From: Chloroflexota bacterium
GTDB lineage: Bacteria > Chloroflexota > Limnocylindria > P2-11E
Direction: 5' to 3'
NCBI GenBank assembly: GCA_038040345.1
Contig: JBBPIQ010000001.1
Location: forward strand, 257,245-321,244
DNA length: 64,000 bases
Of the stretch, positions 5,738-21,197 are shown piece after piece. The stretch's first letter is position 1; each line of letters begins with the position of its first letter. Below the pieces are notes generated by a model. It was not told where the DNA came from. It did no database searches and saw only the letters and a list, made by a program, of their open reading frames with translations. The position numbers and the translations under genes are program-made.

Positions 5738-5798
5738 ATTGCATGACGACGACCGCCCTGATGCGCCGGGCCGAGAGCAGCGGAAAAATGCTTGCTGT

Positions 5799-5839
5799 CG
5801 CCCGGAGGGGATTCGAACCCCTGACCTCTTCCTTGAAAG
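5799..5839 (-). other. Orphan 3' half of tRNA-Glu (T-arm through anticodon loop): att-site-like direct repeat of the 3' end of the intact tRNA-Glu at 21124-21197
   Basis: A roughly 40-nt identical stretch gcccggaggggattcgaacccctgacctcttccttgaaag is shared with 21125-21165. Sequence 5' of the anticodon loop diverges completely. Confidence 0.75.
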
Positions 5840-5927
5840 CGATGGGGTCGAGAGAAGTGGCCTAGCGATTTGTTTACGCACCAACTGATACCGGTTCTGA
5901 GCGAAAATGCGCGTCAGAGAAGCGGCC
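5831..5927. repeat. 97-nt repeat copy A (conserved 36-nt and 27-nt termini, variable centre), abutting the tRNA-Glu fragment
   Basis: Same-length ungapped alignment with 9301-9397, about 64/97 identical, concentrated at both ends. Internal direct motif GTC(G/-)AGAGAAG at both ends. Confidence 0.6.
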
Positions 5928-5974
5928 TTGTGAAAACGATGCGGCGGGCAGCAGACCAGCCATTTCGTGCGGTG

Positions 5975-6595
5975 CTACACGCCGTCGACAGCCGGGCCGG
6001 GGCGAGCAGGCGCGCTCAGGCGATTCGACTGAAGAGCCGCGAGTATGTGCACGGCCGACGCGATGTCACTCGCGTCCTCGGACATGTGCGACCAGATGAT
6101 GGTGCCGTCGATATCGATGATCATCGCGCCGCCGAGCTGGGCGAAGTCACCGATCGTGCGGCCCTGAAACACGCCGTGTTTCGCGATGGCCATGACGCCC
6201 TTGGCGACGACGAGGGGCCCAAGCAGCTCGTCCATGGTTGCGACCTTCGCGCCTGCTGCCTTATAGGTCAGGCGCTCTGCGTCGGCGAGCACGGGCAGGT
6301 CGATCCCTTGGGTGCGGCGGAAATGCGCTGCGTGAGGCGGCGTGGCCTGGCCGATCAGGACCAGGCGCGCGCCTGCCTCCGCAAAGCTGGCGCGGTCACG
6401 GTGCAACTGCACCGCATGTGCACGGCAGAACGTTCAGCCGTAGTGGCGCAGCCAGACCAGCACCGCAGGGCGGTCGCGCCAGAGATCTCCAAGTCGCACC
6501 ACGCGTCCCTCGTGGTCTGGCAGCGTGATATCGACGAGCTCATCGGCACGCCGCGGTGGCGACGCGTGCTGACGTTCCGTCGCGGTGCCAAACAC
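5975..6595 (-). CDS. TlpA/AhpC-TSA (Prx-like) thiol:disulfide oxidoreductase; candidate selenoprotein with in-frame TGA (6434-6436) giving a UxxC motif (…VLVWLRHYG-U-TFCRAHA…)
   Basis: A single reading frame runs from GTG 6595 through TGA to the stop at 5975. The region around the TGA matches the TlpA-family FWASWCxPCR redox motif, with Sec in place of the first Cys. Downstream is a thioredoxin-fold region (DLPVLADAERL, IIDIDGTIIW). Hairpin 6397-6416. Confidence 0.6.
6397..6416 (-). promoter_or_regulatory. SECIS-like hairpin (mRNA UGCGGUGC-AGUU-GCACCGUG) 18-37 nt downstream of the in-frame UGA of the Prx-like gene
   Basis: 8-bp stem (with G-U pairs) and a GU-containing tetraloop, seen directly. 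Confidence 0.4.
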
Positions 6596-6605
6596 GATGC
6601 GACGC

Positions 6606-6998
6606 CTACCTCGCCGCGGTGGTCGCAGATTCGACCGGGCGCCCAGCTGCGACCCACGCCTTGAACCCGCCGTCGAGGTGAGCAACGTTCGTGTAGCCCA
6701 TGTCCGTGAGCGCGGCGGCCGCAAGCGCCGAGCGTCCCCCGGTCGCGCAGTGAAGGATGATGCGGCGCTCCGGCTCGAAGCCCTCCTGGTGGTACGGGCT
6801 CGTCGGATCGGCGCGGAACTCGAGCATGCCGCGTGGCACGTTGACCGAACCCGCGATGCGTCCCGACTCGGCGAGCTCAGCTGGTTCACGCAGATCGACG
6901 AGCAGCACGCCCGCAGCGCGCTCCTTGTCGACCCCAGCAACATCGAGGTTCTCGATCTTCGCCTTCGCCTCGGCGACCAACTCAACAGCCTTCTTCAT
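6606..6998 (-). CDS. Single-domain rhodanese (sulfurtransferase), Cys-containing active site HCATGGRS
   Basis: CxxGxR active-site loop. GGAG Shine-Dalgarno sequence 7 nt upstream of ATG 6998. Stop is 10 nt before the Prx-like start. Confidence 0.8.
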   Translation of the reverse strand: MKKAVELVAEAKAKIENLDVAGVDKERAAGVLLVDLREPAELAESGRIAGSVNVPRGMLEFRADPTSPYHQEGFEPERRIILHCATGGRSALAAAALTDMGYTNVAHLDGGFKAWVAAGRPVESATTAAR

Positions 6999-7073
6999 CG
7001 TCGTGCTCCTTTCGTTCCTGAGCGTGTGACGGACGGTAGTGACCGCCACCACGCCGGTCGTCAGGAGTTCGCC

Positions 7074-8648
7074 CTACAAATCGAGCGGCTCGAACGTGTC
7101 GAGGAGGCCGTGCTGCATCGCGAAAAGCGTCGCCGTGGACCGCGTCGACGCGCCGATCTTGCTGTAAATGCGCTCGATGTGGGTGCCCGCCGTCTTCGCA
7201 GAGATGCCGAGTGCCTGCGCCACCTGGCGGTTGGATGCACCGCGGGCAATCAGCGCCAGGACCTCGACCTCGCGAGGGGTCAGCCCGGCGGGTCCGCTTC
7301 GTCGCTTGCCCTGGCTTTGTCCCGCTGCCGCGAGGACGGCGTCGACACCGTCCACGTCGAAGCGCGCCGCACGCACGTCACGACGCAGTTCCGTCGCAGC
7401 CTGCTTCGGGGTCATCGCAGGTCGGTAGGAACGCGGCTCGATCATCGCGCGGTATGCGCACGCTGCGCCGAGTAGCCGACCCCCGACGGGAATCGCGGGC
7501 CGAGTGAGGGCGCGGTGATAACCCGAGCCGTCGCAGCGCTCATTGGTCAACGAGGCGATCGCGCCGAGCCGGGCAAGTACGGGTGGCCGCGACAGCACTC
7601 GCTCGGTGTAGTAGGCATGCATCCGCATGCGCTCCCATTCGGATCGCGAGAGCGGACCCGGCTTCTCGAGGATCGTTGCGGGGACACCGTGCAATCCGAT
7701 GTCGTGCAGCAGGCCCGCGCGCCGGAGTGCCACGACCTCAGCCTCGGGAAGCCCCACATAGGCTGCGGCTGTCGACACCAAGTCGGCGACCCCGCGCGAA
7801 TGACCGGCACGCGACGGCGAGCGTAGATCCGTGAAGTCGGCAACGGCCTCGAGCGCCACGTCGAACTCATCCTCGGAGAGGCGTTGCTGCAACGACGGCT
7901 CGTCTGCGATGAGCATCTGCCAGTCGGTGTCGATCACGGGATCACCGAGCACGTCATCCGCGACGGCGGCGAAGGCGGCAACGACCGCGGGATCGAACTG
8001 CGTTCCGCGCCGCTCGCGCGCGACAGTGACCGCAGCCCGCGTCCCCTCGACGCGCTGCACCACCTCCACGACATCGGCGAGCTGATACAGACGCATTGGC
8101 AGCGCGATCGCGTCGCCCGCAACGCCGAGCGGCACACCTTTGCCGTCCCACCGCGTGAAGAACTGGTTCAGCGGGTCGCGCACCTCAACGCCGAGCCCCA
8201 GCCGGTCGGCCATCGTTGCCGTGACGAGGCAGTGGGAGTGGATAACGGCTTCGATCGCACTCCGTCCGGCGGCCATGAGACTGGCGGCGACCCGAAGGCG
8301 TCGCAGAGATGGGCGGCCGGCTCCGGCGTGCCGGAGCATGAATCCGACGAGCGGCAGACCGGACTGGTCGAGCTCATAGCCGTCGTGCCGGTAGGCGATG
8401 TCGTCACCGAACCACGCGGACAGTTCAGGCGTGTCCGCGACGCAGCCGACCCACGCAAGAGTGGCGACATAGTAGAGCGCGCCGCGCTCGTCACGTTTGA
8501 TGCCGACGTGGTCCCCGAGACGAGCGGCAATGAGCCATGACCGCAGGACATGCTCCATCGGCTGACCGAGACCGAGGTCGACCGCCAGCGTGAACGCCGC
8601 GACGAGCTCTGCGAGCCGAAGGCCCGAATCGTCCGCAGCGCCCTTCAC
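7074..8648 (-). CDS. HD/HD-GYP-like domain protein with C-terminal LuxR-type HTH (transcriptional regulator)
   Basis: LLHDIGL HD motif, then C-terminal LTPREVEVLALIARGASNRQVAQALGISAKTAGTHIERIYSKIG. Confidence 0.7.
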   Translation of the reverse strand: MKGAADDSGLRLAELVAAFTLAVDLGLGQPMEHVLRSWLIAARLGDHVGIKRDERGALYYVATLAWVGCVADTPELSAWFGDDIAYRHDGYELDQSGLPLVGFMLRHAGAGRPSLRRLRVAASLMAAGRSAIEAVIHSHCLVTATMADRLGLGVEVRDPLNQFFTRWDGKGVPLGVAGDAIALPMRLYQLADVVEVVQRVEGTRAAVTVARERRGTQFDPAVVAAFAAVADDVLGDPVIDTDWQMLIADEPSLQQRLSEDEFDVALEAVADFTDLRSPSRAGHSRGVADLVSTAAAYVGLPEAEVVALRRAGLLHDIGLHGVPATILEKPGPLSRSEWERMRMHAYYTERVLSRPPVLARLGAIASLTNERCDGSGYHRALTRPAIPVGGRLLGAACAYRAMIEPRSYRPAMTPKQAATELRRDVRAARFDVDGVDAVLAAAGQSQGKRRSGPAGLTPREVEVLALIARGASNRQVAQALGISAKTAGTHIERIYSKIGASTRSTATLFAMQHGLLDTFEPLDL

Positions 8649-8675
8649 GTTCGTCAGCCTACTGGGCCGCCCGCC

Positions 8676-9221
8676 TTACGTTCGCCGGACCTCGGTCGTA
8701 TGCGCCACACGGTTGTCCATCGCCCAGATCGCGGGGCAACGCTCGTCCGCAAGTCGCTTCACCCGCGCGACCTCGTCCTCCGACGCGTCGGTCGCGACAT
8801 CGAGCTCGAACGCGAACGCATTGAGTGGGGGCACCTCGGCGACGCCGAGCGCGGGACGAAAGTCGACCTGGAGGCGAAGGCGTGCGCGCAGGCTCTTGAT
8901 CTTCATGCCGACCATCGCCGCCTGCATCGCATATGTCGACGCGTAGCAGGAGAGGGCACCCCAGAAGCAGTAGATGAGGGGGGACGGAGCGCGACCGTCT
9001 CCGCTCAGGAACGCAGGGAAGTCGGCCTCGAAAGTCGTCTCGCCCCTTGCGTACTTCACCGTTCCGCCGAACTGCGCCTTGGTCTCGTCGGTGCGCCAGT
9101 CGCCGACGAGATCCACACTCAACTGGGCCGCGCTTGGATCGGCCTTCGCCTTCTCCGCGGTCGCCCGCGCGTTGTCGACTCGCACGTTGTGCAGCGTCGC
9201 CATCGTCCCGTCCCTCATCAC
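8676..9221 (-). CDS. OsmC/Ohr family peroxiredoxin-like protein (Cys-containing)
   Basis: Conserved OsmC cysteines (LIYCFWGALSCY, ERCPA). Start uncertain (the alternative MATLHN start was not adopted). Confidence 0.75.
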   Translation of the reverse strand: MMRDGTMATLHNVRVDNARATAEKAKADPSAAQLSVDLVGDWRTDETKAQFGGTVKYARGETTFEADFPAFLSGDGRAPSPLIYCFWGALSCYASTYAMQAAMVGMKIKSLRARLRLQVDFRPALGVAEVPPLNAFAFELDVATDASEDEVARVKRLADERCPAIWAMDNRVAHTTEVRRT

Positions 9222-9300
9222 AATGATGTTCGCTCGCCCTCCGAGAGAGCAACGTGGCGGAGTCTAGGCGAGGTCGCTAGCAGCTCTTGATTCGCCGTTC

Positions 9301-9397
9301 CCTTGAAAGAGATGAGGTCGAGAGAAGCTGCCTAGCACGACTTCTGAGCACGACTCGGGCCGCTCATAACTCGAAAACACGCGTCAGAAAAGCGGCC
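9301..9397. repeat. 97-nt repeat copy B, preceded by a degenerate tRNA-Glu T-arm/anticodon remnant (gattcg…ccttgaaag)
   Basis: Alignment with 5831-5927. Lies between the OsmC start and the stop of the ArsM-like gene. Confidence 0.6.
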
Positions 9398-9441
9398 CAA
9401 GGAACGAAATGAAGGGGGGCGGCAGGCCGCCTTCGGTCAGC

Positions 9442-10230
9442 TCAAGCTGGTTTGCGCGCGTAAACGGTCACGCCGCGCGTCTCGAAGTCCTTGGCGTCAC
9501 TTTCGTGCTTGCTGCCGGCGAACACGTCGACCTCATTAGACATAACGATGTCCGTGAAGCCGGTCTGTTCGAGGAGCACGCGCCACTCTGCATCCAGCAG
9601 AGCCCCGGCAATTCAGCCGCTCCAGAGCGCGATGTCGTCCTTCGCATCCTGAGGAACTTCTTTATGCACGAGGATGTCTCCGATCTGGATCCGCCCGGTG
9701 GGCTTGAGGACACGGAGCATTTCGCCGAACACCGCGCGCTTATCGGGGCACAGGTTGACCACCCCGTTGCTGATGATGACGTCCGCGAAGCCGTCATCGA
9801 CGGGCAGCACTTCCGCGAAGCCTTCGCGGACGTCGACGTTGGAGAGTCCCATCTCGCGTGCGCCTTCTTGCGTCCTCTCCCGCATCTCCGCCGTCATATC
9901 GACGGCGACGACCCGACCGCTCGGCCCGACCTGCTGCGCGGCGATCAGGGTGTCAACGCCCGCGCCGCAGCCGACGTCGACCACGCGTTCGCCCGCGCTA
10001 AGATCGCCGAACAAGAAGGGGTTCCCCGTGCCGGCGAATGACGCGAGGTTTGTCGCCGGAACGCGGTCGATGAGTTCGCTGGGGTAGCCGAGCATTAGGG
10101 CCAAGGGTCGACCGGTGTGAAAGTGGAATCCGAGTTCGGGGTTGGTGGCGACTTCGCTGTACTTCTCGGAGATGAACCGACGAAGCTCATCGCGATCGAT
10201 CCGCGCCACTCCGATCTGTTGCGCAGTCAC
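9442..10230 (-). CDS. ArsM-like class I SAM-dependent methyltransferase; candidate selenoprotein with in-frame TGA (9613-9615) at the conserved catalytic Cys position (…DIALWSG-U-IAGALL…)
   Basis: SAM motif VVDVGCGAG. The conserved ArsM C-terminal domain (IAGALLDAEWRVLLEQTGFTDIV…GVTVYARKP) continues in frame for 56 codons after the TGA to the stop at 9442. Hairpin 9586-9602, exactly 11 nt after the UGA. Confidence 0.6.
9586..9602 (-). promoter_or_regulatory. SECIS-like 17-nt hairpin (mRNA CUCUGC-UGGAU-GCAGAG) starting 11 nt downstream of the in-frame UGA of the ArsM-like gene
   Basis: Perfect 6-bp stem (7 with a G-U pair) and a 5-nt loop. The spacing matches the canonical bacterial SECIS. 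Confidence 0.45.
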
Positions 10231-10316
10231 CCTAACGACCTCCGTTCGCGCTCGAATGAATGGCCCGGAGGATACTGCGCGTCTAGCGTTTTTCGATGAA
10301 CAGTGGGAGGAGTCTG

Positions 10317-10682
10317 ATGGCGAAACTACTGATCACGACCGTGGCTGGTCCCGATGATCCAACCCGCGCCAGCCTCGGTTTCCACATGGCCGTGAACGGC
10401 GCGGTCAAGAACGAGATCGATACGAGCATCGCGATGGCCGGCGATGCGATCGAGCTGCTCAAGCCCGGCGCGGCGGATCACGTCCGGGGCGTTGGCGTTC
10501 CGCCTCTAGTCGAGCTGCTTTCCGGCTGCGTCGCCGCCGGGGTCAAGATCTACGTCTGAAAGGGTTGCGCTGAGGCCCGTGGGGTCTCGCAGCCGGACCT
10601 CGCAGCGATCAAAGCCGAGTACATGACACCGCCGACCCACACGCGCATGGTGATGGAGGCTGACCGAAACATCAGCTTCTAG
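10317..10682 (+). CDS. DsrE/DsrF/YchN-like protein; candidate selenoprotein with in-frame TGA (10557-10559) giving a UxxC motif (…VKIYV-U-KGC-AEARGV…)
   Basis: GGGAGGAG Shine-Dalgarno sequence 4 nt upstream of ATG 10317 (an alternative ATG exists at 10296). The region around the TGA aligns with YchN VKLCKTCTDGRGI. The frame continues 41 codons to TAG 10680-10682. Hairpin 10571-10589. Confidence 0.6.
10571..10589 (+). promoter_or_regulatory. SECIS-like hairpin (UGAGGCCC-GUG-GGGUCUCG) starting 12 nt downstream of the in-frame UGA of the DsrE-like gene
   Basis: 7-8 bp stem with a G-U pair and a GUG loop. Confidence 0.4.
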
Positions 10683-10688
10683 CCGCGC

Positions 10689-11738
10689 CTACTTCTTCAG
10701 CTCGGTCGACAGCCCCTTGAAGATCGTGAGATCGATCGCCTTGAGCAAGTCGTCGGTGCTCGCTTTCAGAAGGCCGACGTCCGTGAGCAGCGGTGCGTAG
10801 AAGCGGACCGCCTTCTCGAGGTCGTACGTGCGCCAGTCGAGAGGCACCATGTTCGCCGCAACAGTTATGTTCGCGAGCGCCGCCGCGCCGCCAAAGAGTC
10901 CCTTATCCGCGGCGAGCTTCGCCGCATCGCTGCGATCGGCGGTGAGGGTGTCCGCGGTGCGATAGATCGCGCGCATCGCACGCTTCGCGGCGATCGGGTT
11001 CGCGCGATACCACGGCTCGCTCGCGATGATGAAGCAGCAGTTGGTGCTCTTCCAGGGCTCGTCCATAACCTGCGAGAAAATCACGTGTCCCTTATTCGCG
11101 GGGTTCGCCTTCAGCGCAGCGGCTGCCGTCGTGGCCACGTACATCACGTCGCTCTTGCCATCGAGGTAGAGCTTCAGCACGTCGGCGTCGGCCTGCACGA
11201 CGAAATTCACATCCTTCGGGTCGACTCCGGCCTGCTTGAGCGCCATCGCCATCCAGCTGTATGGCAGGTTGGTAAGAGCCTTGGAAGTTACGGAGATGGT
11301 GCGCCCCTTGAGATCCTTCAGCGAGGCAATGCCCGGCTGCGCCCAGATCTCATTGCATCCGGGGTGGAGCCCACCTAGCGCGACAACCTTCGGGCCGCTC
11401 TCGACCGAGTTGAAGACCGCCTGCGGGAATGCGTTGCCAATGTCGGCGTTACCTGCCGCGATCGCCGTGGTGGTGACCGCGTCAGTGAACTTCACGTCGG
11501 TGAAGCCTTCCTCGCGGAGATAGCGCTCGGCCCCAAAGATCGCGCTGTCGCATGCGCCAGCCGCAAGCCGGATCGAGGTCGTCTCCGGCGGCGCCAGCGT
11601 TGCCGTCGCAGTCGGGACCGGAGCCGTCGCCGTTGCGGCAGACGAGCCTGCGGGTGCGCACGAAGCGAGAAATGGTCCGGCGGTCAACGCGGCGGCGGCA
11701 CCCATGCCGCGGCGCAGCACCTCACGTCTCGTGACCAT
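10689..11738 (-). CDS. ABC transporter substrate-binding protein (NMT1/SsuA/TauA-like, NitT/TauT family) with Tat signal
   Basis: N-terminal RREVLRRGMGAAAALTAG twin-arginine motif. Periplasmic binding-protein fold signatures. Confidence 0.7.
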   Translation of the reverse strand: MVTRREVLRRGMGAAAALTAGPFLASCAPAGSSAATATAPVPTATATLAPPETTSIRLAAGACDSAIFGAERYLREEGFTDVKFTDAVTTTAIAAGNADIGNAFPQAVFNSVESGPKVVALGGLHPGCNEIWAQPGIASLKDLKGRTISVTSKALTNLPYSWMAMALKQAGVDPKDVNFVVQADADVLKLYLDGKSDVMYVATTAAAALKANPANKGHVIFSQVMDEPWKSTNCCFIIASEPWYRANPIAAKRAMRAIYRTADTLTADRSDAAKLAADKGLFGGAAALANITVAANMVPLDWRTYDLEKAVRFYAPLLTDVGLLKASTDDLLKAIDLTIFKGLSTELKK

Positions 11739-11930
11739 TGAAGATCCCCCCCTCCCGTCACCCGAGTCGAATCGAGCTGACGGCCGACCGGATACTAGGC
11801 GGGCCCCAGAGAAATAGCGATGGCTTGATCTCTGCGGCCATCGCAGTGCCTATCGGGCGAGCGGTCAGGCAGTCTTCCGCCCTGGAGCGCTCTCTTTCCC
11901 GATTCCGCGGGACGGATCGCGTCGCCCGCG

Positions 11931-13151
11931 TTAGCGCGCGGCGAGCACGAAGTAGGTGGTCAGCGGCCCACGGCCGCGAACATCGATCGCACCGCGCTCT
12001 TCGCAGACAAAGTCGTCCTTCACGAGCGCGTACGTCGTCTCGCTCACCTGAACGCGGCCGGCCATCCCCTGGGACTCCATGCGACTCGCCGTGTTCACGG
12101 TGTCGCTCCAGATGTCGTAAACGAACTTGTGCTTCCCGATGACGCCCGCGACCAGCGGTCCGGAGTTCAGGCCGATGCGCACCGCGAGGCTGCGCCTCTC
12201 AGGTGTGCGGTAGCGCTCGATGAAGTCCCGCACATCCAGCGCCATGCGGACCGCCGCGAGCGCATGATCCGCGCGTGAAAGCGGCACGCCGCTCACACCC
12301 ATCCAGTTGTCCCCGATGGTGCGGATCTTCTCGACGCCGTGGCGCTGGGCGAGGTCATCGATATGAGAGAAGACGTCGTTGAGGACGCCGATGAGCGCGT
12401 CCGGCGTGAGCTCTAAGGCGAGGGCGGTCGAGCCAACGAGGTCGGCGAAGAGTACGGTCGCATGTGCGTGCGAGTCGGCGATGCGACGTTCACCGGCCTT
12501 GAGGCGGTCCGCGATCTGCTTCGGAAGGATGTTGAGCAGCAGACCTTCCGAACGCTCCTGCTCCGCGGCCAGTAGGTGCATGGCTTGGTCGCGCTGGCGG
12601 TTGAAGACGGCCAGGAGCGTGACCGCGAGCGTGCTGATCGCGGCGATGTTGAGAACGAAGAAGGTCGTACGCAACCACTCCGGGAGTGCGTTCGTCCCGC
12701 GCAGGCTGCCCTCGAGAACACCGGCGGTCGCGACGAGGGCAAGAAATGCCAGCAGCCAGAGTGCCGCGCGTGGTGCGCCGAAGACGAGTGCGCCGATCGG
12801 TGCGAGCAGCGACCAGAGCACGACCCCGCTGGACGGCACGAACCCGCCCAGGGTGAGCTGCAAGGCGAAGGGCAGCGCTAGGATGAGCACGAGCTCGATC
12901 CATCGCAGGAGCGCGAACCAGCCCGTGATTAGGAAGGTCGCCAGCCCCAGCAAGCTGACGATGACATACGCGAACGGGATGGCAGCCGACAGCCGCTCGC
13001 CATAGATGAAGTAGATCGCCGACCACACCAGGCCCGGCGGGATAAACAGCAGCGCTGAGAGCACGAGCAAGGTCTTCTGCGTGCGGACCTCGCTCTCGTC
13101 GCCGGGCGGGCTGACCCGACCCGCGATCTGGTCGACGAACGGAAGGAGCAC
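11931..13151 (-). CDS. Membrane-anchored class III adenylate/guanylate cyclase
   Basis: Six hydrophobic N-terminal helices. The C-terminal cyclase domain has FADLVGST…GDNWMGVSGVP…NTASRMES motifs. Confidence 0.8.
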   Translation of the reverse strand: MLLPFVDQIAGRVSPPGDESEVRTQKTLLVLSALLFIPPGLVWSAIYFIYGERLSAAIPFAYVIVSLLGLATFLITGWFALLRWIELVLILALPFALQLTLGGFVPSSGVVLWSLLAPIGALVFGAPRAALWLLAFLALVATAGVLEGSLRGTNALPEWLRTTFFVLNIAAISTLAVTLLAVFNRQRDQAMHLLAAEQERSEGLLLNILPKQIADRLKAGERRIADSHAHATVLFADLVGSTALALELTPDALIGVLNDVFSHIDDLAQRHGVEKIRTIGDNWMGVSGVPLSRADHALAAVRMALDVRDFIERYRTPERRSLAVRIGLNSGPLVAGVIGKHKFVYDIWSDTVNTASRMESQGMAGRVQVSETTYALVKDDFVCEERGAIDVRGRGPLTTYFVLAAR

Positions 13152-13219
13152 CTCAGCCCTGCATCAGGCGGAGGGGACGATGGCGCTTACATCCGGATTC
13201 ATCGCGCGCGGGTCCGTCG

Positions 13220-13717
13220 TCACTCCACGAGGACGGCCGCGCGCATACGCTGATCAGCGTGCCCGGGCACGCTGCAGTACGCGTCGTAGCGTCCTGGGGG
13301 CAGCCCGCGAAGGCCAACTGTCTTGGTTTCGCCGGGGTTCGCCACGATGTGGATCCCGAGCGCCGGCACAGTGAGGTCGTGCATTACGCCGTTTGCTGCG
13401 GGGTTGCTTAGCGTCAGATTCACTTCCGTCGCGTGCGGGACGCGGATCTCGCTGGGCGTGAAGCTGAAGTTCAGGGCCACTACCCGCACCTCGGTTGCGC
13501 CGGGAATGGCGGACGCGGCGGGGCCGGCGTTGCCGAAGCCCATCATCCCGGGACCCATGGGCGCTTGGCCCATCATGCCGGGGCCTATCTGCCAAGACCC
13601 GTTCGGGAATGCGCTCGCACCACCGGCGGCTTGGCCGATCGCCAATGCGGCGATGCCGAGGAGCAGAAGGATGCCCGACACCACTGCCACCGAGCCGGCG
13701 ACCCGCTGGGCGGTCAT
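13220..13717 (-). CDS. Membrane-anchored cupredoxin (type-1 copper protein, plastocyanin/azurin-like)
   Basis: C-terminal YCSVPGHADQRM copper ligand set (H…C…H…M). N-terminal TM helix. Gly/Met/Pro-rich linker. Confidence 0.65.
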   Translation of the reverse strand: MTAQRVAGSVAVVSGILLLLGIAALAIGQAAGGASAFPNGSWQIGPGMMGQAPMGPGMMGFGNAGPAASAIPGATEVRVVALNFSFTPSEIRVPHATEVNLTLSNPAANGVMHDLTVPALGIHIVANPGETKTVGLRGLPPGRYDAYCSVPGHADQRMRAAVLVE

Positions 13718-13950
13718 CGCTTCGTCTCTTCGATCGCGGCGCGCCGAGTGCGGAACTCCTCCGTGTCGATCTCGCCACGCGCCAGTCGCTCTTCGAGGAT
13801 CCGAAGGGCACCGCTATCCCCTCCGCGGGCATGCTGTTGTCGCGAGAGCGTCAGGACTGCCCAGACGATTCCCGCGATCACGAAGACCCAAAAGAGCAGC
13901 ATCAAGAGTCCGCCGAAACCGAACCAATAGCCGTTCATATATGGCATCAC
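13714..13950 (-). CDS. SHOCT domain membrane protein
   Basis: N-terminal TM helix plus C-terminal LEERLARGEIDTEEF SHOCT motif. ATGA overlap with the cupredoxin gene. Confidence 0.65.
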   Translation of the reverse strand: MMPYMNGYWFGFGGLLMLLFWVFVIAGIVWAVLTLSRQQHARGGDSGALRILEERLARGEIDTEEFRTRRAAIEETKR

Positions 13951-14112
13951 ATGAAGACCTCCCTCAGAGACGGTACGCCGGATGCGAGCGTAGGAGATGC
14001 GTCCGTCGGACTCACGACCGGCGGGTCAAAGGTCCTCTCAACACGACGAGATAGAGCGACGAAGAGGGCGCTAGGTCTCGCGACGGACACTCCACAGATC
14101 ACGCTCTGTGCG

Positions 14113-15456
14113 TCACCAAGGCTCCGGGGCGAGCGCTCTCGATTCTCCAGGCGCACGCGTTTCGGGAAGTCGACCGAGCGTCACGAGACCCGAAGCCAGT
14201 GTCAGGGCGGCCACGACCCCGACGGCCCAATTCAGACCGAGCCGGTCCGCGACGATTCCGGCGACGAGCGCTCCGATCACGTAACCCGCGTCCCGCCAGA
14301 AGCGATACACGCCGGTCGCGGTCGCTCGCCATTGTGGGTGTGCGACATCGGAGACGACCGCGAGCAGCGTGGGATAGACCAAGGCCGTGCCCAGACCGAG
14401 AGCGGCCATGCCGACGAGCGCGAGCCAGAAATCGGGCGCGATCGCGAGCACACCCAGTGCGGCCGCCTGTACGAACATTCCACCGACGATCAGCCACCGC
14501 CTGCCAAATGCATCGGACATGGCTCCGGTCGCAAGTTGCGCCACGCCCCAAACGGCGGGGTACGCACCGGCCAGAACGCCGACCTGTTGGAGATCACGGC
14601 CCGAAGCGAGGAAGAGCAACGGCAGCAGACCCCACGCGACACCGTCGTTGAGGTTATTCACCAGACCGGCTTGGCTCGCAGCAGAGAGCGCACGGTCACG
14701 CCAGGTGGTCCGCGCGAAGATCTCGCCCAGCGATGGAAGGGGCTCCGACGGACGGTCCGTCGCTTCTGCGCGCGCGTGCTCGACGGACTCTCGGGTTGCG
14801 AGCGAAAGCCCCAGACCAAGGATGGCGAACGCAAGGCCGAGGAGAAAGGGCTGCGGTCGTAGGGCGGTGGCGGCCGCGAGCTCGCTCCCGGCGAAGGCGG
14901 CGAGACCGACTGCGAGGTAGCCAGCGAACTCGTTGATCCCAAGGGCCAGCCCGCGGCGGGCAGGCCCCACGAGATCAACCTTCATGATGATGGTCATCGA
15001 CCAGCAGAGGCCCTGATTCACGCCCAGGAAGAGATTCGCGGCGACGACCCAGCCCCAGTTGGGCGCGAGGATGATTAGCACGGGGACGGGTAGGCCGAAG
15101 AGCCAGCCTGCGATGAGCAGCCGCCTTCGACCCACCCGGTCCGCGAGTGCGCCGGCGGCCAGGTTGGTCACCGCCTTGGTTGCGCCGAAGCTGGCGATGA
15201 AGGTAAGGAGCGCGGCCCACGAGGCGACCCCGACTCCTGCTCGCCGAGGACCGGCAAGATCGCCCGCTCGAGCCCGACCATCGCTCCGACGAAGGCATTG
15301 ACGGCGACGAGCAACGCGAACTGCCTCCAGTTCGCGCGCAGACCCAGTCGGATCCCGACCACTGACGGGACTACGAGAGCGAACGCTCCAGCACTGCGAT
15401 TTGCCACACCCACCCGCGCCGCTGCATGACCGGACGCAAACCGGCGGACTCGGCAA
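14113..15456 (-). CDS. MFS transporter with an apparent single-base frameshift near 15228-15238; TM1 lies in the other frame (ORF 15168-15521)
   Basis: The 15168-15521 frame gives …FALLVAVNAFVGAMVGLERAILPVLGEQ. The long frame resumes at …VASWAALLTFIASFGATKAVTNLAAGALADRVGRRR, the MFS D/GRR motif. This is a pseudogene or a sequencing indel. Confidence 0.6.
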   Translation of the reverse strand: MPSPPVCVRSCSGAGGCGKSQCWSVRSRSPVSGRDPTGSARELEAVRVARRRQCLRRSDGRARAGDLAGPRRAGVGVASWAALLTFIASFGATKAVTNLAAGALADRVGRRRLLIAGWLFGLPVPVLIILAPNWGWVVAANLFLGVNQGLCWSMTIIMKVDLVGPARRGLALGINEFAGYLAVGLAAFAGSELAAATALRPQPFLLGLAFAILGLGLSLATRESVEHARAEATDRPSEPLPSLGEIFARTTWRDRALSAASQAGLVNNLNDGVAWGLLPLLFLASGRDLQQVGVLAGAYPAVWGVAQLATGAMSDAFGRRWLIVGGMFVQAAALGVLAIAPDFWLALVGMAALGLGTALVYPTLLAVVSDVAHPQWRATATGVYRFWRDAGYVIGALVAGIVADRLGLNWAVGVVAALTLASGLVTLGRLPETRAPGESRALAPEPW

Positions 15457-16021
15457 TCGCGAGGATCCGGCGCGGGTCGTGAATGTAGAGGCGGAAGGCG
15501 CAGCCGCGGAGCCGGAACCAAATGCGGCTAAGCAATTGCCCGACCCGCCACCACCAGCGGTCGGCAGGAAAGCTCAACGCCAGGACTCTTGCCGCGTGGT
15601 TGGCCGAGACGCCGACCAACGCTTCCATGTCTGGATAGCAGCAGATCACCCGATGAAGCAGCACGATGTCCGCGCGCGGTACCTGGTCACCATCCTGGGC
15701 GAAATCAAGGACGGTGCGATCGACACGGGCGGTGAGGCCGACGGTTTCCAACAGGTCACGGGCTGCCTGCTCGTACGTATCCACGAGCTCCACATTGGTC
15801 GCGCGCGTCGCCCCCGCACGGAGCAGCTCGATCTCGAGGGCGCCGATACCGCCGCCGACTTCCAACACGCTCGCCCCGGCGACACCTCGATTCACGATCT
15901 CATCGACCATCCGCTGACCGGTGGGATCCAATCCTTTCTTCAGATAGGTTTGCGCGTCGCTCCTCGCGTTCTTCTCGTCGAAGAGCTCCGCGTAACCATC
16001 CCTACCGCAGCACGCTGGCAT
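15371..16021 (-). CDS. Class I SAM-dependent methyltransferase with N-terminal Cys pair (MPACCGRDGY…)
   Basis: VLEVGGGIG SAM motif. N-terminal CC dyad. Sits within the metal ATPase operon. Confidence 0.7.
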   Translation of the reverse strand: MPACCGRDGYAELFDEKNARSDAQTYLKKGLDPTGQRMVDEIVNRGVAGASVLEVGGGIGALEIELLRAGATRATNVELVDTYEQAARDLLETVGLTARVDRTVLDFAQDGDQVPRADIVLLHRVICCYPDMEALVGVSANHAARVLALSFPADRWWWRVGQLLSRIWFRLRGCAFRLYIHDPRRILAIAESAGLRPVMQRRGWVWQIAVLERSLS

Positions 16022-16041
16022 CGCTCAACCCAAGCGCGTCG

Positions 16042-16335
16042 CTACGCCATTTCCGATCGGATGATCTCGCCGTCGTGCCACTCCGGATCCGCCGCGAGCA
16101 GTGCGCGCATCTTCTTGTAGCGCTCGTCCTGCTTGGGATCCCGCGCGTTCGCGACGTAGCTCTCCTTGTCCTTGAAGGCGACGGCCATGTAGATCTCGTT
16201 CGGGTCGCGATCCATGCGATACACGACCGTGCTGACAAACCCCGAGATCTTGAGCTGGTCGTACTGAGCCATGTCTTCCTTGAGCTTCGCCTCCATTCCT
16301 GGCTTAAGTCGCATCCGTGCAACCGTCCCGTACAT
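16042..16335 (-). CDS. ABM (antibiotic biosynthesis monooxygenase-like) dimeric alpha+beta barrel protein
   Basis: 97 aa. ABM-like pattern (…FVSTVVYRMDRDPNEIYMAVAFKDKESY…). Confidence 0.55.
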   Translation of the reverse strand: MYGTVARMRLKPGMEAKLKEDMAQYDQLKISGFVSTVVYRMDRDPNEIYMAVAFKDKESYVANARDPKQDERYKKMRALLAADPEWHDGEIIRSEMA

Positions 16336-16546
16336 CCAAGACTCCTTCCCGCGTTTGCTCGCATCCTATGCGCGCGCTGCGGTTGGTCCACGGCAGTCCC
16401 GCCGCAGCCGATGTGCGGTGTGGCGCCGAGCGCCGTACGCTCACGATCCGCAAGACGCAATTCGGGACGTGATCTGCGGATTCGCGGCTCTTTCTCGGTT
16501 CGGCGCGTCGACTCGCCCACCCGCGGGAGCAAGAAGGGGATTTCTC

Positions 16547-18958: not shown

Positions 18959-19079
18959 CGAGCGCGATCCAGCAGAACCAATACAACGCCGTCATCCACC
19001 ACGCGTTGCGCGTGCCGAGCTGCGCTTCGACGGCGTGTTCCTTGCCGGTGCCCACGCGGTTGTTATCGGGTACTTCGGC

Positions 19080-19302
19080 TCACGAATCGGAGAGCGTCGA
19101 CCGCAACTGCTCGAATTGTTCCTTCGTGATCTCCCCGCGGGCCAAACGACGCGCCGCGATCGCCACCGCGTTCTCAGTCTCGCGAGCGTTCGTACTGTAG
19201 CAACACGGCAAGCCCGACCAGCACGACCACGATCAGGAGAAGGGTTGGGAGCCACATCCACCCCGCCATCCAGCTGCTCATCGTCGATCCCCAGTCCATC
19301 AT
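19080..19302 (-). pseudogene. SHOCT domain membrane protein with an apparent -1/+1 frameshift (TM part and SHOCT motif in different frames)
   Basis: Frame A: MMDWGSTMSSWMAGWMWLPTLLLIVVVLVGLAVLLQYERSRD then stop. The adjacent frame continues …AVAIAARRLARGEITKEQFEQLRSTLSDS then stop. GAGGAG Shine-Dalgarno sequence before the ATG. Paralog of 13714-13950. Confidence 0.5.
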
Positions 19303-19732
19303 CGCGAGTCTCCTCTGTATTCATTCGTCGAACATATGCTGCATTCACGGATCGCCGACCGACAGGGCCGTCCGACCCGCCAAATACGTCCGAAGTGACC
19401 CATTTCGCCGGGCGGCACCCTCGACCTGTGAAACCACGTCGACGCAGCCGTCTCGTCGCTTCTCGGACCTGTCGCCACACACCCGCGCTCTGCCATGACC
19501 AGAGTTTGAGCCCCCGAACCAAACGGGCCCCGTCTCTGCGTGCCACGAGATCGGAAGAAAACTGTGGCGTCTTTTCGCAACGCCCTGCGCAAAGGAACGG
19601 AAACCTACACGACAGCCTCGTGTAGCCCGGAGGGGGGTCAAGCGCGCGGAAGTGATAACAGTTCAGCTCGTGGGGGACGCGCGCGGCTGGCTTCGATTGG
19701 CGAGCTGAGGTGCAAGTCCCGTCCAAGCACGG

Positions 19733-20284
19733 GTGCCCGATGACCGGGTCAGCCGCTGCCTGCACATTGACCTCGAAGGCTTCGTCAAAGGGCACAGATT
19801 CTCGTACCGCGCCCACATCGAGGTGTCCGGCGACGAGTCGCTCGACGAGACCGTGAATGACCTCATTGTCGAATTCCGCCAGAACGAGTCTTGGCCGCTC
19901 GCCAACCAGGTCTGGCAGCAGATGACCGCAGCCGAAGACCGGGCGCTCAATCAGATGTTCCGTAATGACGTCATGTCGGCCTACCTGATGAAGCGGGTCC
20001 GGGGCGAGTTGATTGACGAATCATTCGCCGGGCACCCTTGGAAATATGACGACGAGCGAATCGCGGAGCGAACGCCATGCTTAGCCTCTTCGGCGGCCTC
20101 GTTGCCTCGTCGGCTGCGTGACTCCGGTTCCGCAGCGTCGAGCGCCGGAGAGACGGGACACTATTTGAACGGCCGATCCGAATACGGATCGACGGTTCTT
20201 GAGCTCCTCCGAGGGTCGCAGACCCTAGAGCCCCCGATCTTGGGCGTGTTTAGCTGCGCCGACCCGAGGTCGCGTCGCGCATGA
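19733..20284 (+). CDS. Hypothetical protein
   Basis: ORF with reasonable codon usage in its first ~110 codons. No recognisable domain. Confidence 0.3.
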   Translation: MPDDRVSRCLHIDLEGFVKGHRFSYRAHIEVSGDESLDETVNDLIVEFRQNESWPLANQVWQQMTAAEDRALNQMFRNDVMSAYLMKRVRGELIDESFAGHPWKYDDERIAERTPCLASSAASLPRRLRDSGSAASSAGETGHYLNGRSEYGSTVLELLRGSQTLEPPILGVFSCADPRSRRA

Positions 20285-20909: not shown

Positions 20910-21123
20910 GTCGTGTCACCTCCTCGAACTACGGCCGCGGACCCCTTCTGGATCCGCGCTACTTGCGACAGACAAACATACTTTGCGGAGATCCGAGCGG
21001 ACCACACAACTGACGGGCTGAAGGTGGAGTTCAGGGCGCGAGCCGCTTGGGAGCCATACATCGAAGCGGTCCTGGCGACGCAAGGGGAGGGCCCCAAAGA
21101 TCTCACGCCTGTTATCACATCGG

Positions 21124-21197
21124 TAGCCCGGAGGGGATTCGAACCCCTGACCTCTTCCTTGAAAGGGAAGCGCCCTGGACCACTAGGCGACCGGGCC
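21124..21197 (-). tRNA. tRNA-Glu (anticodon TTC)
   Basis: Manual fold: acceptor GGCCCGG/CCGGGCT, D-arm GCCT…GGGC, anticodon stem CTTCC/GGAAG with loop CTTTCAA, T-arm AGGGG-TTCGAAT-CCCCT, discriminator A. Confidence 0.85.

Follow-up and report, generated by a model that had tools for sequence, protein, structure and literature searches.

The window analysed here, a 64-kb stretch of DNA from a soil Chloroflexota MAG, contains three genes within 4.7 kb that each have one in-frame TGA, placed exactly on the catalytic Cys column of the respective protein family. The first, at 5975..6595 (-), encodes a SelL-related/Prx-like (AhpC-TSA_2, PRXL2-type) thioredoxin-fold oxidoreductase of 206 aa, and its GTG start at 6595 agrees with the N-termini of full-length homologs. 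Its UGA, the putative Sec54, is found at 6434..6436 (-) in the motif U54-T-F-C57. The protein matches the Pfam families AhpC-TSA_2, AhpC-TSA and Redoxin and scores 133.5 bits against the NCBIfam model NF040769 SelL_rel_redox (cut-off 120). Its nearest PDB relative is the prostamide/PGF synthase 9us9, where U is opposite the first Cys of CxxC.

The second gene, at 9442..10230 (-), encodes an ArsM-like SAM-dependent methyltransferase of 262 aa with a putative Sec206 in LWSG-U-IAG (UGA at 9613..9615 (-)); the true stop is also a TGA. Besides the Pfam domains Methyltransf_31/25/11 and Ubie_methyltran, it is nearest to ArsM selenoprotein models, with a score of 215.7 against PRK11873 (NCBIfam; cut-off 263). 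The top PDB matches are the arsenite methyltransferases 5evj and 4fr0, with U opposite the Cys of GEC(L)(A/G)GAL. The third gene, at 10317..10682 (+), is divergent from the methyltransferase and encodes a DsrE/YchN-like protein of 121 aa (Pfam DsrE, 52.7 bits, cut-off 22.7) with the motif U81-K-G-C84 and its UGA, the putative Sec81, at 10557..10559 (+).

The positions that the first-pass annotation had given for the three TGAs are right and its motifs (RHYG-U-TFC, LWSG-U-IAGA and KIYV-U-KGCAEARG) exact. As it had also proposed, the frame stays open past each TGA, for 152 (Prx-like), 56 (methyltransferase) and 40 (DsrE-like) sense codons. These codons are under purifying selection, with dN/dS values of 0.06-0.32 that are close to those of the upstream parts. 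An internal stop is confined to these three among the 42 Pfam-supported genes of the window, 18 of which end in TGA, more than in any other stop codon. There is no general decay of TGC to TGA, as all remaining Cys codons in the six genes of the cluster are TGC.

In alignments with full-length homologs, the U column is occupied by Cys in all three families. The Prx-like site is TGA in all seven distinct closer homologs (66-100% identity), which include Solirubrobacteraceae MAGs, and TGC in four more distant ones. For the methyltransferase, the codon is TGA in 74 and TGC in five of the 79 distinct homolog contexts drawn from named genomes. One methyltransferase homolog has Trp (TGG) at this site. 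The TGA forms, 56-98% identical, come from Chloroflexota classes, Acidobacteriota, Gemmatimonadota, Latescibacterota and one deltaproteobacterium. U81 of the DsrE-like protein is opposite Cys in four full-length homologs and Ser in four, and it also aligns with YchN LCKTC, at the first Cys, and with 3mc3 YVC. Here the TGA persists in homologs of as little as about 40% identity, including all closer relatives, and it is the exact end point of about 100 protein clusters 80 aa long.

A SECIS-like hairpin was found after each of the three TGAs, as had been claimed, but at a spacing of 9-17 nt and not 11-18 nt. In the Prx-like gene it reads UGCGGUGC-AGUU-GCACCGUG (6397..6416 (-); 8 bp, 17 nt after the UGA), in the methyltransferase gene GCUCUGC-UGGAU-GCAGAGU (9585..9603 (-); 7 bp, 9 nt after the UGA) and in the DsrE-like gene GAGGCCC-GUG-GGGUCUC (10572..10588 (+); 7 bp, 12 nt after the UGA). 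The apical loops have a G within the first two bases, the classic bacterial SECIS geometry. Note that hairpin stability by itself is not beyond chance in DNA of 67% GC: among all 1448 TGA sites, the stability ranks are 21% (Prx-like), 9% (methyltransferase) and 1% (DsrE-like), and the z-scores against shuffles are 0.10, -1.76 and -2.05. The significance of the hairpins therefore comes from comparative data and not from stability.

In the seven available sequences of the Prx hairpin 100% of the cells are paired, compared with 12-62% in slid-register controls; four pairs vary, by wobble only (GC/GU) and with no double compensatory change, and the pairing is gone in the TGC forms. In the methyltransferase hairpin, the synonymous sites are frozen in the Sec forms (GCU 73/74, CUG 74/74, CUG 72/73, GCA 70/74, GAG 73/74), such that the third-position entropy is 0-0.3 bits versus 1.0-1.7 at equally conserved upstream residues; the hairpin is missing in all five Cys forms. 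The DsrE hairpin has 98.8% of cells paired over 12 sequences (slid controls 29-64%). In three of its seven pairs both partners differ between sequences (AU/UA, GC/CG), and none of 500 shuffles attains the observed score; these compensatory changes may reflect one event that parted two clades.

Between the Prx-like and methyltransferase genes we find a rhodanese, a regulator and an OsmC-like protein, all three as named in the first-pass annotation and confirmed by Pfam. The single-domain rhodanese (6606..6998 (-); Rhodanese, 76.9 bits) has its active-site Cys84 (TGC) in HC-ATG-GR, and there is an 11-nt overlap of its stop with the Prx start. The regulator (7074..8648 (-), 524 aa) combines HD_5 (HD-GYP-type, 119.8 bits) with a GerE/LuxR HTH (57.4 bits). 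The OsmC-like protein (8676..9203 (-); OsmC, 40.9 bits) is a Cys form, with Cys92 in C-YA-S, and scores 59.5 bits against NF041052, "OsmC-related (seleno)protein", which is under the cut-off of 95.

Parts of this neighbourhood recur in relatives. A rhodanese that is 89-93% identical adjoins the Sec-Prx gene in loci L087 and L097-L099, and in L087 and L097 the HD-GerE regulator is syntenic with this pair at 86-87% identity. OsmC is directly 3' of the Sec-methyltransferase (MT) in L013, L014 and L015, and Prx(Sec)-MT(Sec) are adjacent in L096-L099. DsrE(Sec)-MT(Sec) are adjacent in other Chloroflexota classes at 44% and 72% identity, and in L036 this pair is adjoined by a fusion of a metallo-beta-lactamase with two rhodaneses and by an MFS transporter. 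The recurring sets are DsrE(Sec)-MT(Sec), MT-OsmC, HD-GerE-rhodanese-Prx(Sec)-MT(Sec) and ArsR-rhodanese-DsrE-MT(Sec)-Prx(Sec). On the flanks of the homologs in L015 and L096 there are ArsR-family regulators. The modules recombine freely, being found apart and in varied combinations across the relatives' genomes, and no promoter or terminator signal that would define an operon was found in the cluster. Since the neighbourhood of rhodanese, DsrE, methyltransferase, Prx-like and OsmC genes recurs in relatives, it fits the shared sulfur, selenium or metalloid function that had been suggested.

The cluster is located inside a 15.3-kb mosaic segment that extends from a tRNA-Glu to a 43-nt repeat of the tRNA 3' half. 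The proximal end is an intact tRNA-Glu(UUC) at 21124..21197 (-) (ARAGORN and Rfam, 68.6 bits), and the distal end an att-like direct repeat at 5798..5840 (-), identical to 21124-21166 at 42 of 43 positions. The metagenome contig L003 breaks exactly at both copies, and L015 and L007 have equivalent partial copies. Beside the repeat there is a conserved island-end sequence, element A (5841..5957 (-)), which is 78% identical to positions 15817-15976 of L015, the equivalent island end. A second copy, element B (9301..9397 (-), 75-89% identical), lies between the methyltransferase and OsmC genes, with about 12 nt of tRNA-like core after it. It is missing in L015, where the MT-OsmC gap is about 27 nt, and is likely a junction scar or a small insertion.

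The other cargo of the segment (10689..20909 (-); Pfam and the L003 gene table) comprises an NMT1-type binding protein, an adenylate cyclase, a cupredoxin, an MFS transporter, a second methyltransferase, an ABM monooxygenase, a heavy-metal P-type ATPase and a RibD_C protein. Positions 9470-16524 of the window are collinear with L007 at 91-94% identity; in L007 the MT-DsrE part has different borders. We were not able to find an integrase in the tRNA-bounded segment of the window, the composition of the segment is not clearly foreign, and the tRNA-proximal junction looks partly "unoccupied". The segment is probably a decayed, integrase-less counterpart of the integrase-bearing islands at the same tRNA in relatives.

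The comparative data strongly favour selenocysteine at all three TGAs, and to judge from sequence the internal UGA of these neighbouring genes is almost certainly read as selenocysteine. By the established workings of the bacterial SECIS, the short hairpin downstream of the UGA in each mRNA would recruit SelB-GTP-Sec-tRNA(Sec), whereas a UGA that has no such hairpin, including the methyltransferase's own stop, would terminate translation. The products would be a SelL-related PRXL2-type oxidoreductase with a U-x-x-C redox pair, a methyltransferase of a distinct ArsM-like clade and a small DsrE/YchN-like carrier, again with U-x-x-C. With the rhodanese, the HD-GerE regulator and the OsmC-type peroxidase as partners, they could form a thiol/selenol relay that handles reactive sulfur, selenium or metalloids, a model based on domain identities and synteny for which we see slightly less than an even chance; the free recombination of the modules, the separation of the methyltransferase from OsmC by element B and the missing operon signals count against it. 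The rhodanese and the DsrE-like protein might take up reactive sulfur or selenium species of the persulfide or selenide type and hand them on, the methyltransferase might cap these by methylation for export, and the Prx-like and OsmC proteins might restore or protect redox centres.

Could the TGAs instead be nonsense mutations or sequencing and assembly errors in pseudogenes or split fragments? Public gene calls mostly do break each of the three genes at the TGA, which gives pieces of 205, 80 and 130-145 aa, and no selA, selB, selC or selD was found in the 64-kb window, as already reported, nor at 60 loci up to about 10 kb away from the homologs. However, the sequence is identical in assemblies from four different SRA runs, and the TGA is kept across phyla in the methyltransferase as well as in DsrE and Prx clusters by the dozen. 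The selection past the TGA, the exact placement on Cys columns and the hairpins kept only with the TGA effectively refute this reading, whose probability we consider negligible. On the other hand, the UGA might be read through as something else, that is, as Cys by a selC*-type tRNA-Cys(UCA) or as Trp or Cys by near-cognate suppression. Such tRNAs exist in some bacteria, and tRNA(Sec) with an atypical 8/4 structure is found in Chloroflexi and Actinobacteria (PMC5389517); Trp and Ser occur at the site in the homologs mentioned above, and the window holds no visible Sec machinery. Yet selC* systems are described in other lineages, the hairpins have SECIS geometry, the families are catalogued as selenoproteins with the same motifs, and large selenoproteomes are known from the Sec-using Chloroflexota, which makes such a readthrough very improbable. 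With their Sec/Cys homolog pairs, TGA conserved in multiple genomes and TGA-linked hairpins, the genes behave as had been proposed, and we regard it as highly probable that they are three genuine selenoprotein genes of known families in a Limnocylindria-like Chloroflexota genome.

With respect to function, the cluster might be a classical arsenic-resistance unit, in which the methyltransferase is an ArsM acting on As(III) and the remainder accessory redox support. Its best solved relatives are arsenite methyltransferases whose As(III)-binding Cys is opposite the Sec, ArsR-family regulators occur beside homologs, the segment carries metal-resistance cargo (P-type ATPase, cupredoxin), and a Sec form of "arsenite methyltransferase" is catalogued (PMC13188914). 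We nevertheless consider it unlikely: the score is under the PRK11873 cut-off, a Pfam scan of the neighbourhood genes gave no arsB/acr3, arsC or arsD, the genes that keep turning up beside it encode sulfur-transfer proteins (DsrE, rhodanese, a persulfide-dioxygenase-like fusion), and only one of the four ArsM-defining cysteines is kept, where the published criterion asks for at least three (PMC5552862). Somewhat less doubtful, though still not what we would expect, is that the genes arrived as independent cargo and became neighbours as island modules accreted in mosaic fashion at the tRNA-Glu, with no functional meaning in their co-localisation. The varied combinations in relatives, the scar-like element B, the different borders in L007 and the Solirubrobacteraceae Sec-Prx, which stands alone beside rpoC, agree with this; the specific pairs that reappear in widely diverged relatives (DsrE(Sec)-MT(Sec) and Prx(Sec)-MT(Sec)) do not, and all five non-regulatory families have known Sec/Cys redox variants. 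The relay model remains our tentative preference.

Some of the context given in the first-pass annotation has to be revised. Its "actinobacterial" setting is contradicted by the backbone proteins of the window, which cluster with Candidatus Limnocylindria (the source is a "Chloroflexota bacterium" MAG at NCBI), and the Actinobacteria, where it held selenoproteins to be uncommon, have been described as a phylum rich in selenoproteins (PMC1794560). The use of Sec is likewise known from Chloroflexota (PMC1794560, PMC13326102). The implied novelty was overstated, too, as published catalogues (PMC13188914 Table 1, PMC1088965) already list selenoproteins of the arsenite-methyltransferase type (UxxG) as well as DsrE-like (UxxC) and Prx-like (UxxC) ones. 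In summary, the find is sound but largely ordinary, and its main added interest is the occurrence of the three genes together on a mosaic island beside a tRNA-Glu. The name "ArsM-like" holds for the fold and the position of the Sec; since so few of the defining cysteines are kept, the methyltransferase is not a canonical ArsM. Across its clade, the Cys72 position is Thr in 76 of 81 sequences and the Cys174 position Gly in all 81. Compared with CmArsM, the Sec stands at the substrate-binding Cys224, and the methyltransferase has an additional, clade-specific Cys161 of its own.

Three genes of the cluster carry one in-frame TGA each, exactly at the positions given by the first-pass annotation, which had proposed them as selenoprotein genes with UGA at a catalytic cysteine. 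In the Prx-like gene (6595-5975, minus strand) the TGA lies at 6436-6434, within the peptide RHYG-U-TFC, and the frame continues for 152 sense codons up to a TAG stop. The methyltransferase gene (10230-9442, minus strand) has its TGA at 9615-9613 (LWSG-U-IAGA), followed by 56 sense codons, and the DsrE-like gene (10317-10682, plus strand) at 10557-10559 (KIYV-U-KGCAEARG), followed by 40 sense codons and a TAG stop. The true stop of the methyltransferase gene is itself a TGA (9442-9444), 56 codons past the Sec-UGA, so that a single mRNA offers a contrast between a SECIS-associated and a terminating UGA. Every ordinary cysteine across the six cluster genes is encoded by TGC, and among the 42 Pfam-supported genes of the window an internal stop is found in these three Sec genes only.

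The read-through product of the Prx-like gene matches the Pfam families AhpC-TSA_2 and AhpC-TSA, and in NCBIfam it scores above the curated cut-off of NF040769, 'SelL-related redox protein' (133.5 bits vs 120). The methyltransferase has a SAM-binding domain (Pfam Methyltransf_31, 100.5 bits, and Ubie_methyltran, 59.7 bits); its nearest NCBIfam models are those of arsenite methyltransferases, headed by PRK11873/NF008823 with 215.7 bits (under the cut-off of 263) and then by ArsM-type selenoproteins. In the DsrE-like protein, the Pfam DsrE domain covers residues 3-121 (52.7 bits vs a gathering score of 22.7). Among the neighbours, the rhodanese, the HD_5+GerE regulator and the OsmC-like protein that had been named from the sequence were borne out by Pfam and NCBIfam. 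Two of them are Cys forms, namely the rhodanese (C-ATG-G) and OsmC (C-YA-S); the catalogued Sec forms of these families are UxxG and UxxT.

In protein searches, the closest public relatives of all three genes are fragments that start or end exactly at the TGA: methyltransferase pieces of 203-205 aa (78-98% identical, dozens of clusters), DsrE pieces of 80 aa (44-98% identical, about 100 clusters) and C-terminal Prx pieces of about 130-145 aa. Full-length proteins are more distant relatives (50-72% identical). In the alignment with Cys-containing homologs that the first-pass annotation had suggested, the U column is filled by Cys in the full-length homologs of each gene. In the Prx family this is the first Cys of CxxC; full-length methyltransferases show LWS[GN]-C-IAG and full-length DsrE proteins YV-C-KGCAEARG. 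One full-length methyltransferase homolog (P0124) has Trp at the Sec position, and its codon TGG, one base from TGA, may be a recent mutation or an error. Four DsrE homologs (P0248, P0263, P0271 and P0276) have Ser rather than Cys at this position. Both kinds of variants may be inactive or functionally shifted.

We scanned one genome per species for methyltransferase homologs and obtained 80 loci, in which the site is TGA in 74 and TGC in 5 of the 79 distinct sequence contexts; the tblastn alignments continue through the TGA up to the C-terminus. TGC also replaces TGA at two DsrE and four Prx loci. For the Prx-like gene the metagenome scan yielded 6 loci only, and exact look-ups were added. 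The methyltransferase is carried by many groups of Chloroflexota (Limnocylindria, Dehalococcoidia, Anaerolineae, Tepidiformaceae, Thermoflexaceae, Thermomicrobiales and Chloroflexia) and, outside this phylum, by a few Acidobacteriota, Gemmatimonadota and Latescibacterota and one deltaproteobacterial MAG. Past the TGA, dN/dS is 0.06-0.32 in the three genes, similar to the upstream parts, which indicates purifying selection, and four independent sequencing runs yield the sequence of the window identically. Together, the comparative evidence, the selection and the identical runs rule out pseudogenes and assembly errors. A variant genetic code can be ruled out as well: TGA is the commonest true stop in the window (18 of 42 genes, including the methyltransferase itself), so UGA is not generally reassigned and its decoding must be local and context-dependent. 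A GC3-based screen of the window and the loci for more genes with an in-frame TGA was discarded as too noisy, with antisense frames passing and two true sites missed.

Each of the three UGA codons is followed by a hairpin. It starts 9 nt after the UGA in the methyltransferase gene (9603-9585, GCUCUGC-UGGAU-GCAGAGU), 12 nt after it in the DsrE-like gene (10572-10588, GAGGCCC-GUG-GGGUCUC) and 17 nt after it in the Prx-like gene (6416-6397, UGCGGUGC-AGUU-GCACCGUG), and in all three hairpins one of the first two loop bases is a G. Ranked among the 1448 TGA sites of the window, they stand at 21% (Prx-like), 9% (methyltransferase) and 1% (DsrE-like), with shuffle z-scores of 0.10, -1.76 and -2.05, respectively. 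We dropped free energy as evidence, as it is not significant in DNA with 67% GC, and because the hairpins alone are statistically unremarkable against this background, the case for SECIS elements must be comparative.

In the methyltransferase, synonymous sites of the hairpin are frozen across the 74 Sec forms: Ala is GCU in 73/74, the two Leu codons are CUG in 74/74 and 72/73, a further Ala is GCA in 70/74 and Glu is GAG in 73/74. The third-position entropy of the hairpin codons is 0-0.3 bits, compared with 1.0-1.7 bits at equally conserved upstream residues (for example, Ala at -10 is encoded by GCG 43 times, GCC 20, GCA 7 and GCU once). In the five Cys forms the codons are unrelated and this hairpin is missing. 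Among 12 Sec-form DsrE sequences, 98.8% of the stem cells are paired, and three of the seven pairs show double-sided changes (A-U to U-A, G-C to C-G); this score was reached by none of 500 shuffles, slid registers were only 29-64% paired, and both Cys forms lack the hairpin. In seven Sec forms of the Prx-like gene, including those of Solirubrobacteraceae MAGs, pairing is 100% with only wobble-compatible changes, and it is lost in all four TGC forms. All three genes thus combine a downstream hairpin, a loop G and conservation at the RNA level, as a bacterial SECIS does, and the hairpins are putative sites of SelB recruitment.

The selenoprotein reading of the first-pass annotation is therefore well supported by Sec/Cys pairs, by selection past the UGA and by TGA-linked hairpins, and the three genes display every feature by which bacterial selenoprotein genes are recognised from their sequence. 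Pending the sel genes, we consider it very probable that they are selenoprotein genes, with the incorporation of Sec predicted. We were not able to find tRNA(Sec), selA, selB or selD within the 64-kb window, which is part of a 1.19-Mb contig (ARAGORN; Rfam at gathering and at E<=1), nor, with ARAGORN, Sec machinery in 60 homolog loci with flanks of about 10 kb. A tblastn search of about 1.3 Mb of loci, with approximate E. coli SelD and SelB sequences as queries, gave no genuine match to either; the one SelB-like match, in homolog locus L078, is EF-Tu (723 bits). An atypical 8/4 tRNA(Sec) has been reported in Chloroflexi and Actinobacteria (PMC5389517), and standard tRNA finders may overlook it. 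These genes leave current concepts of Sec decoding unchanged.

As to the host, the gene context had been described as actinobacterial, which is wrong: backbone and island proteins alike belong to a 'Chloroflexota bacterium' MAG (MEK6224937-MEK6224985), and the 90% clusters of these proteins include proteins of Candidatus Limnocylindria. The nearest methyltransferase loci are in a Chloroflexota MAG (98% identity) and in Limnocylindria MAGs (75-86%). What made the context look actinobacterial was probably the presence of an MshC-like ligase, an MMPL transporter and DinB/MDMPI-type proteins. The ligase (22415-23581, minus strand; 388 aa) is a class-I Cys-tRNA-ligase catalytic domain without an anticodon-binding domain, annotated as MshC (mycothiol ligase) by JGI and as cysteine-tRNA ligase by NCBI, and the DinB/MDMPI-type proteins of the window include that at 5225-5737 (minus strand). 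Together they hint at a mycothiol-like low-molecular-weight thiol in this Limnocylindria-type genome. The Sec Prx-like gene does occur in true Actinomycetota, namely in Solirubrobacteraceae MAGs, adjoining rpoC. There (loci L093-L095, about 9818-10393) it stands alone, with a polysaccharide deacetylase gene on one side, rpoC on the other and a DsbA/Thioredoxin_4 gene nearby, and therefore has no tie to the methyltransferase module in those MAGs.

The Sec genes lie on a segment between the intact tRNA-Glu(UUC) gene (21124-21197) and, 15.3 kb away, a repeat of its 3' half (5798-5840, 42/43 identity). A metagenome contig of 15,346 bp carries the same genes and is broken precisely at both tRNA-Glu copies. 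In a locus of a Limnocylindria MAG (L015), the same tRNA-Glu (5705-5778) is followed by a tyrosine integrase (PF00589, 84.9 bits), a CDF transporter, ArsR, the Sec methyltransferase, OsmC and two partial tRNA copies (15926-15975 and 16818-16864). Another homolog locus (L007), collinear with 9470-16524 of the window (91-94% identity), has an integrase remnant (33 aa) and a tRNA half (3005-3054) at its end. In this Chloroflexota lineage, the tRNA-Glu(UUC) gene looks like a hotspot of repeated insertion: the intact gene comes with at least one direct copy of its 3' half, and the cargo bounded by them varies and includes the Sec genes.

The segment is similar to tRNA-gene integrative islands in being bounded by an intact tRNA-Glu and a direct repeat of its 3' half, and in relatives the similarity extends to a tyrosine integrase beside the same tRNA and to tandem partial copies. 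It differs from them in that we found no integrase in the window segment (Pfam on the ORFs of 18992-20909; tblastn with the L015 integrase), that its composition is not clearly foreign (GC 65.8% vs 67.2%; tetranucleotide distance 0.15-0.19, with a mean of 0.134 and a maximum of 0.192 for backbone chunks), that it is mosaic and that its proximal junction is odd. The stretch directly 3' of the intact tRNA-Glu (20988-21123) is about 70% identical to L015 16864-16997, which trails the last partial tRNA copy and should be native flank; the proximal junction of the window hence looks 'unoccupied' despite the att repeat 15 kb off. A sequence of about 100 nt at the island end (element A, 5841-5957) has a second copy (element B, 9301-9397; 75-89% identity) between methyltransferase and OsmC, after which come only some 12 nt of a tRNA-like core (CTTTCAAGG). 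Since methyltransferase and OsmC abut in relatives, this suggests that element B is a junction scar or an att-arm. We also considered both elements as structured RNAs, but folding z-scores of 0.45 and -1.88 and the lack of an Rfam match fit island-end or junction sequences better. We found no viral contig relatives and no close plasmid relatives (plasmid matches were at most 43% identical). The metal-related cargo of the segment consists of a P-type ATPase, a cupredoxin and an MFS transporter. The 64 kb contain two heavy-metal (HMA-domain) P-type ATPases, one in the segment (16547-18958, minus strand) and one in the backbone (42482-44800, minus strand), the latter near the cytochrome oxidase genes COX1 (38864-40540), COX2 (33989-34948) and a CtaA/CtaB fusion (36957-38750).

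Among the homolog loci the arrangement of the cluster is modular yet recurrent. The Sec DsrE gene adjoins the Sec methyltransferase in Limnocylindria and again in other Chloroflexota classes, where DsrE identity is about 44%; methyltransferase and OsmC are adjacent in three Limnocylindria MAGs. Farmland metagenome contigs have HD-GerE, rhodanese, Sec Prx and Sec methyltransferase contiguously, and so does one locus (L096) for an ArsR-rhodanese fusion, DsrE, Sec methyltransferase and Sec Prx. In about 20 loci, an MFS transporter is found within 1-4 kb of the methyltransferase. In a groundwater Chloroflexi MAG (L036), a 547-aa fusion of a metallo-beta-lactamase with a double rhodanese (7307-8950, plus strand) lies immediately upstream of the Sec DsrE and methyltransferase genes, accompanied by DUF5680 and an MFS transporter; we take its architecture to be that of persulfide dioxygenase-rhodanese enzymes such as CstB. 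In a Limnocylindria MAG (JBBRQB01, locus L001), DsbA/Thioredoxin_4, a 246-aa protein and TatA come before the same two genes; still further upstream, a 104-aa ORF and a 235-aa Pyr_redox_2 ORF lie on the same strand, only 25 nt apart, and might be another gene split at UGA (side observation at 4564-5610, minus strand, and 8044-9576, plus strand). A scan of 5700-10800 for promoters and terminators gave nothing above shuffle expectation.

The solved structures nearest to the methyltransferase are arsenite methyltransferases (5evj, 4fr0), and with the Sec arsenite-methyltransferase family it shares the common fold, a SECIS immediately downstream of the UGA, the existence of Cys-containing homologs and the position of Sec, whose U-I-A-G column aligns with the Cys of GEC(L)(A/G)GAL (Cys224 of CmArsM, Cys206 of human AS3MT). 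It differs in that the window clade (81 members) has no equivalents of ArsM Cys44, Cys72 and Cys174: the N-terminal region is devoid of Cys, the Cys72 position (GCG) is Thr in 76/81 and the Cys174 position (SNC) is Gly in 81/81. The clade has instead a Cys161 of its own in NLCPDK (64/81), and Sec/Cys206 is invariant. ArsM has been defined by at least three of the four cysteines at CmArsM positions 44, 72, 174 and 224 (PMC5552862), of which the window protein keeps only the 224 position, as Sec. It falls short of both this definition and the PRK11873 cut-off and, for this reason, should not be filed as ArsM. We predict that it acts as an enzyme of the ArsM fold in which a Sec/Cys pair binds the substrate.

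Possibly, though not quite probably, the genes of the cluster work together as a thiol/selenol relay that handles reactive sulfur or selenium or else a soft metalloid. Rhodanese and DsrE would then be the carriers, the methyltransferase would provide the capping, detoxifying step and the MFS pump the export, Prx-like protein and OsmC would take part in redox maintenance, and HD-GerE would act as the regulator. Classical arsenic methylation, which has the arsenite methyltransferase fold on its side and the missing ArsM cysteines against it, is the weaker alternative and seems unlikely. It is also conceivable, if rather doubtful, that the genes came to lie together mainly through the mosaicism of the island; here the modular arrangement and the mosaic segment have to be weighed against adjacencies that recur from one Chloroflexota class to another. 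The thiol/selenol relay can be extended to a broader proposal, which we make with considerable reserve: a previously undescribed multi-selenoprotein pathway of ArsM-like, DsrE-like and SelL-related proteins (all with Sec), rhodanese and OsmC would act as a selenol relay and spread as tRNA-Glu-island modules among soil Chloroflexota. If this were true, the relay would capture and methylate reactive sulfur, selenium or metalloid species, and the genes would be mobile, Sec-dependent detoxification genes that work only in recipients already equipped with Sec machinery. Should the clustered genes indeed cooperate, a sulfur/selenium/metalloid methylation relay would join the short list of multi-selenoprotein operons, and selenoprotein genes would be shown to travel on tRNA-targeting islands.

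Public gene calls split all three Sec genes at the UGA and have left hundreds of fragments of 205 aa, 80 aa and about 130 aa in the databases; as a consequence, Limnocylindria-type soil Chloroflexota are mis-annotated and their selenium dependence is under-counted. Judging from codons, one ArsM-like clade is almost always a predicted selenoprotein (Sec in 74 of 79 distinct contexts). Since its SECIS is nearly invariant across phyla, it is well suited as a marker and as a model SECIS.

The novelty of the genes was over-rated in the first-pass annotation. The review PMC13188914 (2026) tabulates 'DsrE-like protein, PF02635, UxxC' and 'Prx-like thiol:disulfide oxidoreductase, UxxC/UxxU' as prokaryotic selenoproteins and places 'Arsenite methyltransferase, NF008823, UxxG' among experimentally verified families, with reference to Fomenko et al. 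2007 (cited in PMC9312934 as well). The Sargasso Sea analysis of 2005 (PMC1088965) already reported selenoproteins of the DsrE-like, Prx-like, OsmC-like and rhodanese types, a study of 2006 counted Chloroflexi among the Sec users and described Actinobacteria as rich in selenoproteins (PMC1794560), and the selenoproteomes of Dehalococcoidia are among the largest known (PMC13326102). With the three families already tabulated and the phylum a known Sec user, there is no novelty at the family level. In a non-exhaustive literature search we did not find the combination of ArsM-like, DsrE-like and SelL-related proteins, or Limnocylindria together with selenocysteine. A modest added interest lies in the near-universal Sec and invariant SECIS of the ArsM-like clade and in the grouping of the three Sec genes on a mosaic island associated with tRNA-Glu.

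The Prx-like protein resembles the SelL-related redox proteins (NF040769; PRXL2-type, prostamide/PGF synthase) in its score above the cut-off and its thioredoxin-fold U-x-x-C; U-T-F-C aligns with CxxC of the homologs, and Sec with the first Cys of CxxC in 9us9 (prostamide/PGF synthase). The motif of fish SelL is UxxU, from which the window protein differs by its single Sec and by its linkage to rhodanese and the HD-GerE regulator. With the DsrE-like selenoproteins (PF02635, UxxC; PMC1088965), the window protein shares the DsrE/YchN fold, a U-x-x-C at the active-site Cys of YchN/DsrE and a downstream SECIS with an apical loop that begins with G. In the alignment, U-K-G-C matches L-C-K-T-C of YchN (U being the first Cys) and YVC of 3mc3. 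Unlike that family, it belongs to a soil Chloroflexota clade often paired with the Sec methyltransferase, some of its homologs have Ser rather than Cys at the site, and it matches no NCBIfam model.

At the level of systems, the cst genes of Staphylococcus aureus encode CstA (rhodanese-TusA-DsrE) and CstB (persulfide dioxygenase-rhodanese). The window cluster has rhodanese and DsrE-like carriers in common with them, and in L036 the metallo-beta-lactamase and rhodanese fusion adjoins the Sec genes. On the other hand, no SQR, TusA or CstR homolog was identified in the window cluster, and cst systems are not known to include a methyltransferase or selenocysteine; we treat the resemblance as a lead only. 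From the SAO system and the Tso operon (PMC13188914) the cluster differs in its gene families, and no SAO/Tso marker model scored above its cut-off there. What it shares with these multi-selenoprotein operons and with the Prx-like/AhpD-like pairs of the same review is the co-location of several selenoprotein genes with rhodanese-type or redox partners, and a suspected role in metal/metalloid or redox chemistry.
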